A stretch of 55,083 nt of DNA, counting the filler, from Porpidia crustulata (taxonomy: Eukaryota), in NCBI GenBank assembly GCA_964255105.1. It is 5 parts of 5 records of this genome, joined end to end, with 100 filler letters (N's around TTAATTAATTAA, not from the genome) between each part and the next. Parts side by side here need not be neighbours in the genome. Positions count along the whole stretch, not along the records: positions 1 to 10,974 come from CAXUWE010000715.1; 4 more parts are not named here. The stretch is one strand, 5' to 3'. Under the pieces are notes generated by a model. That model saw nothing but the letters and a program-made list of their open reading frames with translations. It did no database searches and was not told the DNA's origin. Shown in pieces: positions 8,923 to 10,974 of the stretch. Within the stretch, counting starts at the first letter, position 1; every line of letters starts with the position of its first letter. The position numbers were made by a program, and so were the translations under genes.

Positions 8923-10974
8923 ATGGCTTCCTCTACGGCTCTTTCGCAATCAATGCGTCATATCACTGCTACCAAGCTCGCTACTCTCTCAAAACAACGC
9001 GATGCATTCGAAGTTGAGAAAAAGGCAATCCTCGACGCAGCTGCAACCGAACCTAGTCGTCCCAAGAAGATCCAACTGCTTCTGGATTGGATCTCAAATC
9101 GAGAAAATAAAGAAGGTTTGGAGAGTATTTCCACCAAGAATATCCAACGCTTTTTAGATCAATCCCGCCATGACAGCTCCGTCTCCCCAAAGTTGCTTGA
9201 AGAATGGCAGATAGCTTTTGAAAGAGCTTTAGATATTCAGTCTCGCAAATACCAGCACGCGTCACTGTTTGGGAAGCTCGTCACAGAATGGCTTGAGAAT
9301 CCGAATGATGCAGTTGCAGGATCTCAGACTCTCATCCAATCGGACTCTGACACTGCTTCGCAGGAATCTTTTGAACAGATAGGCCGTGCAGAGATGCATG
9401 AACAAAGGCAAGAATGGGAGTCGATTGTATTACACCCGTCTTCAAAACCAGACCCGGATGCCATCAAATCGTATCTATCGAGTTTATTCGGTTCCACTTC
9501 CAAGGCGAAGAAACTTACCAAAACGCCTTTGGAGGATCTCAGAGATCATATGAAAGACTGGCTGACTATTGAACGGTTCACCCCAAATGTAGTGGCATGG
9601 TGTGTCAAAGGTTTGCTGAAGCTTGATTTGCTATCTCGGGAAAAGAGGAATGCAATTGCAGAATTCCAGAACAACCCATTAGTGTTAGTTGAGTTGGCAG
9701 ATGTTTTGAACATGGAACTCGATATACTAGACTCGTGGTCTTGGGGTGACGGTCCAATTCCTTTGAATGTACGTCGGCAGTTGAACGGCAAGTATCGAGT
9801 TTTCATGGATGAAGAGATTCTACAGGCTTTGTTCCTGCACTTCATTGGTACCAAATGGGCTGTGCATTTGAAAAAATCGTTCAAGGCTTTCTTCCATTCC
9901 GGTGCCTGGAAACAATCTTCGTTCAAGTCGCTTGACAAAAAGGCTAGGCAACGAAGAGAAGGCTTCCTCGGTCCTACCCGCGGAGGCGCATCTGAGAGAG
10001 GTGGGAGAGGTGGACGAACTGTCCGAGATGAGAGACGGTCCATGTACGAGAACGACTTCTTTCTCACCCAACTACCATCGGCCATCGCCGAAGTATCTCG
10101 AGATTACAGTGACCTCGATGACGATAAGAGCGACGATGTGAAATCGCCAATTGCTATCAAACAGTCTATGCTCCACTTAATGACCACCGAATCCCTCATC
10201 AATACTCGCCTGTATGGCACTTTTACAATCGTTCAATCCGATTTTCGATGGTTTGGCCCGTCGCTGCCTCATACGACAATCTATGCAGTGCTAGAATTTT
10301 TCGGTGTGCCTGAGAAATGGCTCAAATTCTTCAAGAAATTCTTGGAAGCACCAGTCAAGTTCGCCGATGATGGTCCTGAAGCCCAAACTCATATACGGAG
10401 AAGTGGCGTTCCAATCCAGCATATCCTCAGCGATGCTATGGGAGAGGCTGTTCTTTTCTGCCTCGATTTCGCGGTCAACCAGGCGACAGGCACCAACCTA
10501 TACAGATTCCACGACGACTTGTGGTTCTGGGGTCAGGAAGAAATGGCCCTTAATGCCTGGGAAGTCATCAATGAATTCACACAAGTAATGGGACTATCTC
10601 TTAATACGGGAAAAACTGGCTGTGTGCAGATTACAGATTCACAAACAGACTCCCCTCATCCATCCGAGAAGCTACCTACAGGGCCAATACAGTGGGGCTT
10701 CCTCCGTCTAAGCACCCCTGGGATATGGATCATCGACGAACAACAAGTCGACAGCCACATTGAAGAACTGTGCCGCCAATTATCTGCCTGCAAGAGTGTC
10801 CTCGCATGGGTGCAAGCCTGGAATACCTACGTCTCCAAATTCCTCGCCACCAACTTCGGCAAACCCGCCGACTGCCTTGGACAAGCCCACATCAATACCG
10901 TCATCTCCACCTTTGCACGCATCCAACGCAAACTCTTCGCCACCGACGAAACCCCCAACAACAACGACGACAAC
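8923..10974 (+). CDS. rvt: rvt-family (RVT1-like) cellular reverse transcriptase-related protein; 3' end lost in the contig spacer
   Basis: Intronless ORF of at least 684 aa with an N-terminal coiled coil (TATKLATLSKQRDAFEVEKKAIL) and the rvt signatures RRQLNGKYRVFMDEEILQALFLHFIG, motif A VQSDFRWFGPSLPH, motif B SGVPIQHILSDAMGE, catalytic YRFHDDLWFWG (10501-10533), GLSLNTGKTG and thumb WVQAWNTY. No gag, protease, endonuclease, RNase H, integrase or LTR is visible in the sequenced part. Confidence 0.92.

Follow-up and report, generated by a model that had tools for sequence, protein, structure and literature searches.

A probable rvt-type cellular reverse transcriptase gene, cut by a contig end, beside arg-6 in Porpidia crustulata

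Introduction

Does a reverse transcriptase (RT) frame lying just downstream of the housekeeping gene arg-6 belong to a mobile element, to the host, or to a defence system not yet described? The question arises from a stretch of 55,083 nucleotides from Porpidia crustulata (assembly GCA_964255105.1), referred to here as the window, in which an open frame covers positions 8923 to 10974 of the plus strand. A preliminary description had taken this frame for an rvt-type cellular RT, a host gene rather than a retroelement, and had proposed it as the best candidate in the window for an undescribed stress or defence system. The analysis presented here indicates, with high confidence, that the frame represents the first 684 codons of a fungal rvt gene with a single exon, that this gene is a domesticated, RT-related host gene of a lichen-type ascomycete, and that its 3' part is lost to the end of a contig. 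The locus is an ordinary new sequence of the described rvt family and not a newly discovered system; what had been called undescribed is the known open question on that family, and the locus holds nothing new in this respect.

Taken singly, the locus changes little, being one more incomplete member of a family described in 2011. Its interest lies in the unsolved function of the family and in a lead provided by promoter motifs. The family itself matters: rvt is, to our knowledge, the one class of RT that bacteria and eukaryotes have in common. The 2011 study of Gladyshev and Arkhipova reportedly found rvt activity to depend on Mn and to prefer nucleoside triphosphates (NTP) over deoxynucleoside triphosphates (dNTP). 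Passages of Mestre et al. 2022 (PMC9226505) describe rvt as single-copy; its N-terminus forms a coiled coil capable of multimerisation in vitro, and its initiation is protein-primed and depends on the C-terminal domain. For the RVT protein of N. crassa, an excerpt of PMC3520738 reports that it is non-essential, has terminal-transferase activity and undergoes dramatic induction upon inhibition of protein synthesis. Part of PMC10680173 names amino-acid starvation and antibiotics as the relevant stresses and states that the catalytic residues are required for relief.

Results

The open frame encodes an rvt-type protein

The frame begins with an ATG at 8923 and proceeds through 10974 without a stop, yielding 684 codons in one frame. 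Judging from the lengths of homologues and from the profile match described below, these are codons 1 to 684 of an intron-free gene expected to contain about 870 to 900. When the encoded protein was compared with the RT profiles of PADLOC, RT_UG37 aligned to residues 9-673 (profile positions 4-614 of 778) with an E value of 5.8e-56; the same profile matched P0002, a full-length homologue 76% identical to the window protein, at E 7.9e-68. The next-best RT profile, UG17, reached only E 7.7e-07 over some 140 residues. Of the profiles for protein-primed defence RTs, Drt9 gave E 5.8e-05 on the window protein, and AbiK, Abi-P2 and AbiA gave no match. Since the match to RT_UG37 is decisive and UG37 is stated to correspond to rvt elements in the available portion of Mestre et al. 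2022 (PMC9226505), we assign the protein to rvt, as the preliminary description had done.

General databases were less informative. Pfam recognized no family in the window protein, and a sequence search of the PDB returned a single spurious match (E 1.5). In four out of four full-length homologues, RVT_1 was the sole Pfam match better than E 0.01, scoring 23, 27.9, 28.4 and 32.1 bits against a cut-off of 29.6.

A word-indexed search recovered 373 homologues at E<=1e-3, the best being 76% identical. Among the 120 homologues listed, most are 850-950 amino acids long and cover 98-100% of the query. A profile search built from 28 sequences returned 1630 cluster representatives at E<=1e-3, 747 of them at E<=1e-30. 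Among the matches listed, the named homologues of the first search come from lichen-forming Lecanoromycetes and from Dothideomycetes; a second search, with a distant member as the query, added Geotrichum, Tuber, Aspergillus (including A. nidulans AN0661), Penicillium, Talaromyces, Exophiala, Blastomyces, agarics and Physcomitrium patens. Such a wide but patchy spread fits that described for rvt, whose patchy distribution is mentioned in passages of PMC9226505 and PMC3520738. Patterns derived from the fungal alignment, when run over prokaryote contigs, hit 22 stretches, and not one was confirmed; these patterns are fungal-specific and thus uninformative on bacterial rvt. As a separate observation, the protein of the moss Physcomitrium patens (P0274) shows 33% identity across 99% of a yeast-lineage rvt, which fits the patchiness across kingdoms reported for the family.

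Anatomy of the protein and conservation of the catalytic residues

To orient the domains we used the AlphaFold model of P0002 (mean predicted local distance difference test score, pLDDT, 79.6; predicted template-modelling score, pTM, 0.80), in which N-terminal helices are followed by the RT core and then by some 200 further residues, again helical, at the C-terminus. The N-terminal helical domain of the window protein (approximately residues 1-212; positions 8923 to 9558) is delimited by the helices of this model and by the UG37 profile, which aligns from residue 9. The corresponding region of P0002 is all-helical and contains two long helices, at residues 3-42 (40 residues) and 89-125 (37 residues). 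Solved RT structures superpose only from about residue 213 onwards. The domain is homologous to that of bacterial rvt. It is probably the coiled-coil or multimerisation domain of the literature, as the long helices in the model and the alignment to UG37 suggest. A complex prediction with two copies of residues 1-130 gave a score of 0.00, with the fold of the partners uncertain and the alignment unused, and provides no evidence either way.

The fingers, palm and thumb of the RT occupy residues 213 to 684 approximately (positions 9559 to 10974), as placed by the models and the structure matches. Within this segment, about 148 residues separate the invariant NGKYR of motif 2 (residues 288-292) from the aspartate of motif A (D440). 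Much of the interval is taken up by an insertion between RT motifs 2 and 3 (approximately residues 325-408; positions 9895 to 10146), RGG-rich at first and acidic further on. Indels are more frequent here than in any other block of the 28-sequence alignment (A1), and the insertion is modelled with low confidence both in P0002 and in the window core. These properties identify it as loop 2a, the "big insertion loop 2a" that Arkhipova, in a passage of PMC5718144, names as an RVT hallmark.

The preliminary description had reported an intact RT core with the motifs SDF and FHDD. Both are indeed encoded in frame: motif A as S439-D440-F441 (positions 10237 to 10245), carrying the first catalytic aspartate, and motif C as F529-H530-D531-D532 (positions 10507 to 10518), carrying the catalytic pair. 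Residues D440, H530, D531 and D532 are invariant in 28 out of 28 and in 44 out of 44 aligned homologues. Equally invariant in both alignments are NGKYR, the W-G of motif E, and K564 and G566 of motif D; the intervening T565 shows no variation in the smaller alignment and is conserved to at least 90% in the larger one. The 27 full-length homologues of A1 all have the conserved C-terminal helical domain; in the window it is cut off at position 10974, and the C-terminal 216 residues of P0002 find no match anywhere in the window's five contigs.

Evidence that the rvt frame is that of a host gene

Orthologous loci were collected from metagenome contigs, where 135 pattern matches led to 97 confirmed cases and to 80 loci that were kept (L001-L080). 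In the closest group (L003, L005, L009, L010 and L011), rvt is one open frame of 900 codons devoid of introns, and the proteins end in a conserved ...KIRWQG. The rvt of L008 has 903 codons, with no stop within the translated stretch. Comparison of the window sequence with eight orthologues gave proportions of nonsynonymous differences (pN) between 0.155 and 0.158 and of synonymous differences (pS) between 0.717 and 0.731. The resulting ratio of nonsynonymous to synonymous substitution rates (dN/dS) is about 0.06-0.08; because synonymous sites are saturated, the value of approximately 0.07 is an upper estimate. Among the relatives themselves, dN/dS ranges from 0.21 to 0.57 wherever dS exceeds 0.008, and pairs with almost no substitutions give meaningless ratios, two of them above 2. 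By this sequence comparison, rvt in the window is under purifying selection, as fits a host gene.

Signs of mobility were sought within positions 1-10974. No LTR-like (long terminal repeat) direct or inverted repeats were found, the longest pairs measuring 21-28 nt at 80-86% identity, and the same interval contains no Rfam family and no tRNA. Full-length orthologues measure 850-900 amino acids; Pfam detects no endonuclease, integrase or RNase H domain in four of them, and the flanks of rvt include no conserved stretch able to encode a template RNA. A single rvt copy is present in the five contigs of the window, and host genes flank both this copy and its orthologues. The absence of retrotransposon domains and LTRs from the sequenced part, noted in the preliminary description, is thus borne out by the Pfam and repeat searches, and the selective constraint agrees with the host-gene status proposed there.

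Structural comparison places the core in a broader context. A model of the window's own residues 205-684 (pLDDT 83.8) was searched against 48,161 solved chains without Foldseek pre-filtering. The top match was R2 (Z 21.7, 379 residues aligned), followed by LINE-1 ORF2p (Z 20.0) and the DGR RT (Z 18.9, 320 out of 328 residues). Lower scores were obtained with DRT2 (Z 16.9), a group II intron RT (Z 15.7, 314 out of 387 residues), Prp8 (Z 15.4), DRT9 (Z 15.0, 334 residues), AbiK (Z 14.0, 240 residues), AbiA (Z 13.2) and telomerase (Z 12.3). Foldseek and a second structure comparison, both run on the full-length P0002 model, agree with this ranking in placing R2 and LINE-1 nearest (Foldseek E 6.7e-09; Z 16.3). 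Fingers, palm and thumb, together with the N-terminal extension of the RT, also superpose best on the non-LTR RTs. Since identity is only 10-14% throughout, we read the structural likeness to LINEs as a shared fold and not as kinship. In the models, the window protein is a complete fingers-palm-thumb RT whose closest structural counterparts are templated RTs rather than AbiK. The intact polymerase active site thus sits in a full RT fold under strong constraint.

These matches bear on a rival idea: the frame might derive from a non-LTR retrotransposon of the LINE/R2 kind, as a relic or as a copy still active, with its endonuclease and 3' parts located past the contig end. The nearest solved chains are precisely those of R2 and LINE-1 ORF2p, and the 3' end of the window gene is out of sight. 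However, identity to these two proteins is 10-13%, the match covers the generic RT core only, and the sequence profile returns UG37/rvt. The orthologues, for their part, end some 200 amino acids later in a conserved helical domain, with RVT_1 as their sole Pfam domain and no endonuclease, zinc-knuckle or Myb domain; rvt possesses, in addition, an N-terminal helical domain and loop 2a, which set it apart from R2 and LINE-1. There are no flanking repeats or other signs of mobility, only one copy in 55 kb, host genes around the orthologues, and a pN far below pS. On this evidence, the retrotransposon explanation has hardly any chance of being correct.

Two other candidate identities were examined and rejected. 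AbiK, considered as the closest structural relative, ranks 14th; its match comprises fingers and palm only, stopping at model residue 400 of 480, whereas the window core aligns through the thumb as templated RTs do. AbiK and DRT9 do share with the window core a superposable palm and fingers, and protein priming and multimerisation, as reported for rvt in passages of PMC9226505, are points of likeness to AbiK, Abi-P2, AbiA and DRT9. Unlike these bacterial defence RTs, the window rvt is a eukaryotic gene, and UG-class profiles other than UG37 match it weakly at most. The association of UG37 itself with defence islands is termed "inconclusive" in the same portion of that paper. As to a group II intron RT or maturase, the fold superposes and a weak sequence similarity exists around motifs A-D; however, TIGR04416 scores 25.9 bits against a cut-off of 300, and no intron RNA family is found by Rfam in positions 1-10974.

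When set against the described rvt/UG37 family (Gladyshev and Arkhipova 2011; N. crassa RVT), the window protein shares with it the near full-length profile match, the N-terminal helical domain, the D..DD RT core and the large loop 2a, with the C-terminal helical domain present in orthologues. Like other members, it appears to be a stand-alone host gene under purifying selection in a family whose patchy distribution includes a moss. There is no difference in kind: the window adds a sequence no more than 76% identical to those known, incomplete at its 3' end and adjoining arg-6.

Gcn4/CPC-1 sites are enriched upstream of fungal rvt genes

Because the family is reportedly induced by translation block and amino-acid starvation, we counted occurrences of TGA[CG]TCA (TGASTCA), the Gcn4/CPC-1 site, ahead of rvt. 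Within the 1 kb preceding the rvt start codon, at least one TGASTCA is present in 38 of 56 loci, for a total of 60 sites; the background frequency, measured in 660 other 1-kb windows from the same loci, is 8.9%. To correct for relatedness, upstream regions of 600 nt were grouped by nucleotide similarity into 30 fungal lineages. If any member is allowed to count, 20 of the 30 lineages have a site within 600 nt, which ranks TGASTCA first among 64 palindromic 7-mer families (the next family occurs in 6 lineages; median, 2). If only the first member of each lineage is considered, 17 out of 30 have a site, as against 4.3% of 399 background windows, an approximately 13-fold excess (binomial 3.5e-16). 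In the lineage representatives, the sites lie 90-455 nt upstream of rvt.

The pattern suggests that induction of fungal rvt is probably transcriptional and directly mediated by the general amino-acid control factor Gcn4/CPC-1. It offers a concrete handle on the role of rvt and fits the reported induction by starvation and translation inhibitors. We did not find the enrichment stated in the literature searched, which did not cover the primary rvt papers (PNAS 2011, Curr Genet 2018); it may be in print already.

In the window, the presumed rvt promoter is the spacer between arg-6 and rvt (positions 8263 to 8922, plus strand). It contains one TGAGTCA at 8267-8273 (-656) and a variant with a single mismatch, TGATTCA, at 8764-8770 (-159). 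The latter lies near the position of TGACTCA in the closest relatives (-153), in an alignment of the 400-nt promoters that is poor.

Several observations weigh against the picture of an intact rvt gene, controlled and acting as in the rest of the family. The window's own rvt promoter lacks a perfect TGASTCA within 600 nt. No perfect site is found within 600 nt upstream of the window arg-6 either, nor in the rvt-to-arg-6 spacer of four relatives. All of the biochemistry, moreover, is borrowed from other rvt members and would apply here by analogy. The last 200 or so codons fall outside the window, which leaves the intactness of the whole gene unproven. Finally, some relatives are broken: codon 630 of rvt is an in-frame stop in both L002 and L016, and the rvt genes of L044, L045 and L047 (10001-12540) require three frame changes, with no intervening sequence.

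Some of these points would also be expected if the window gene were an rvt pseudogene, broken in its unseen 3' part or otherwise decaying in the lineage. Besides the broken relatives, the patchy distribution of the family and the failure of the window to conserve the proximal promoter site of its closest relatives are in keeping with such a view. Against it, 684 codons out of 684 are open, all residues invariant in the family are present, and the divergence from orthologues is overwhelmingly synonymous. We therefore regard decay of the window copy as quite improbable and retain the reading of a constrained host rvt gene. In their own right, the L002/L016 and L044/L045/L047 sequences are apparent rvt pseudogenes in related lichen-metagenome fungi, with frame changes common to contigs of different metagenomes.

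A possible course of action for the rvt protein

By analogy with other family members, the rvt protein would be induced when translation or amino-acid supply fails and, in fungi, this induction would run through Gcn4/CPC-1. The protein may multimerise through its N-terminal helical domain, as the family literature has it, and may polymerise nucleotides, NTP in preference to dNTP, from a protein primer and without added template. Its catalytic residues would then be needed to relieve the translational or amino-acid stress.

A further step can be envisaged. DRT9 and DRT10, which produce poly-dA and repeats, respectively, copy them from bound non-coding RNA. Given this precedent, and since the window core superposes through the thumb with R2, LINE-1, DGR and DRT2, the RVT product could possibly be RNA-templated. 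In its full form, the proposal would make rvt a direct Gcn4/CPC-1 target and an effector arm of the translational stress response, whose "untemplated" product might be copied from an unrecognised cellular RNA and attached to protein. We consider this combination speculative and, taken as a whole, rather unlikely.

The arg-6 neighbour and the depth of the synteny

The gene upstream of rvt occupies positions 5488 to 8262 on the plus strand and comprises two exons separated by a short intron near 7.9 kb. Its domains (AA_kinase, NAT and Semialdhyde_dh) identify it as arg-6, the precursor of acetylglutamate kinase and N-acetyl-gamma-glutamyl-phosphate reductase. The stop codon is at 8260-8262, and the spacer to rvt measures 661 bp; the position just downstream of arg-6, given as 660 bp in the preliminary description, is correct. 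arg-6 is a classical general-control gene. Its lack of a perfect site indicates that TGASTCA is not a complete read-out of the general-control regulon in these genomes.

The two genes adjoin on the same strand in 10 of the 80 metagenome loci (L001 and L003-L011, one close group), whose arg-6 is 87-91% identical to that of the window. In these loci, arg-6 (from about 13300) lies after rvt (10001-12700), whereas in the window it precedes rvt. Where a locus is flanked by 4 kb or more on each side (24 loci), arg-6 is missing from 17, and the remaining seven belong to one close group. Thus the adjacency to arg-6 holds in close relatives, and neither the order nor a wider conservation does: the synteny is shallow. 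An adjacency this specific is unlikely to have originated twice by chance, and so is probably ancestral to the small clade; the present order then probably reflects a later local rearrangement. Tandem duplication followed by reciprocal loss was considered as a source of the reversed order and is unsupported, positions 1-5460 containing neither the upstream genes of the relatives nor a decayed rvt.

A shared strand and immediate proximity, in the window as in the 10 loci of its closest relatives, might mean that rvt and arg-6 work together as a unit of two genes, under common control during amino-acid starvation, rather than being chance neighbours. Both genes are plausibly starvation-responsive, arg-6 through its place in general control and rvt according to part of PMC10680173. 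The order of the genes is nonetheless reversed between the window and the relatives, most of the well-flanked loci (17 of the 24) have no arg-6 and the other seven come from a single close group, no perfect Gcn4 site precedes arg-6, and in L016 the synteny is lost about 250 nt after the rvt stop. We judge a two-gene unit improbable.

L016 matches L010 up to that point, approximately 250 nt past the rvt stop, and diverges thereafter. In this locus, 2.3 kb of unrelated DNA (12950-15230), with two minus-strand open reading frames (ORFs) of 213 and 178 amino acids, stand in the place of arg-6 up to the contig end. This stretch may be an insertion.

The flank on the other side of arg-6 is poor in recognizable features. 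A blastn comparison of positions 1-5487 and of the spacer (8263-8922) with the 80 loci produced no match at E<=1e-5, and positions 1-5460 have nothing in common with the upstream genes of the relatives. The latter segment has no ORF longer than 154 amino acids, and no Pfam family was detected in the five ORFs scanned out of 23 short ones (positions 1-5600). It is a gene-poor or decayed stretch.

The window is a concatenation of five contigs

The preliminary description had treated the end of the rvt frame as bordering a 3' gap to be closed. The N run that follows position 10974 is instead an artificial contig junction, with no gap inside a scaffold. A linker of the form N44-TTAATTAATTAA-N44 is found four times in the window (10975-11074, 22037-22136, 33082-33181 and 44088-44187), with its TTAATTAATTAA word at 11019, 22081, 33126 and 44132; the chance expectation is 0.01. 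The pieces between the linkers are strictly descending in size (10974, 10962, 10945, 10906 and 10896 bases), as in a fragmented assembly, which leads us to view the window as five contigs arranged by size, with a linker carrying stops in all six frames between them. Since the rvt frame breaks off where its contig ends, DNA from position 11075 onwards is not its neighbour, and features of the window are not to be read across the linker junctions. A Logan contig of public run X1 (10,961 bases; 99% of the sampled words of the stretch occur in X1) ends at window position 10967, indicating that automatic re-assembly halts at the same place (mean word depth of about 10).

Genes past 11075 include a TRIP12/HECT ligase, a HET-domain gene, ankyrin-repeat genes and DUF7730. 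HET-domain and ankyrin-repeat genes are typical fungal non-self-recognition gene types. The HET-domain gene and two large ankyrin-repeat ORFs, which are unrelated to rvt, lie in contigs 4 and 5, at 41609-43201 on the plus strand and 45127-50213 on the minus strand.

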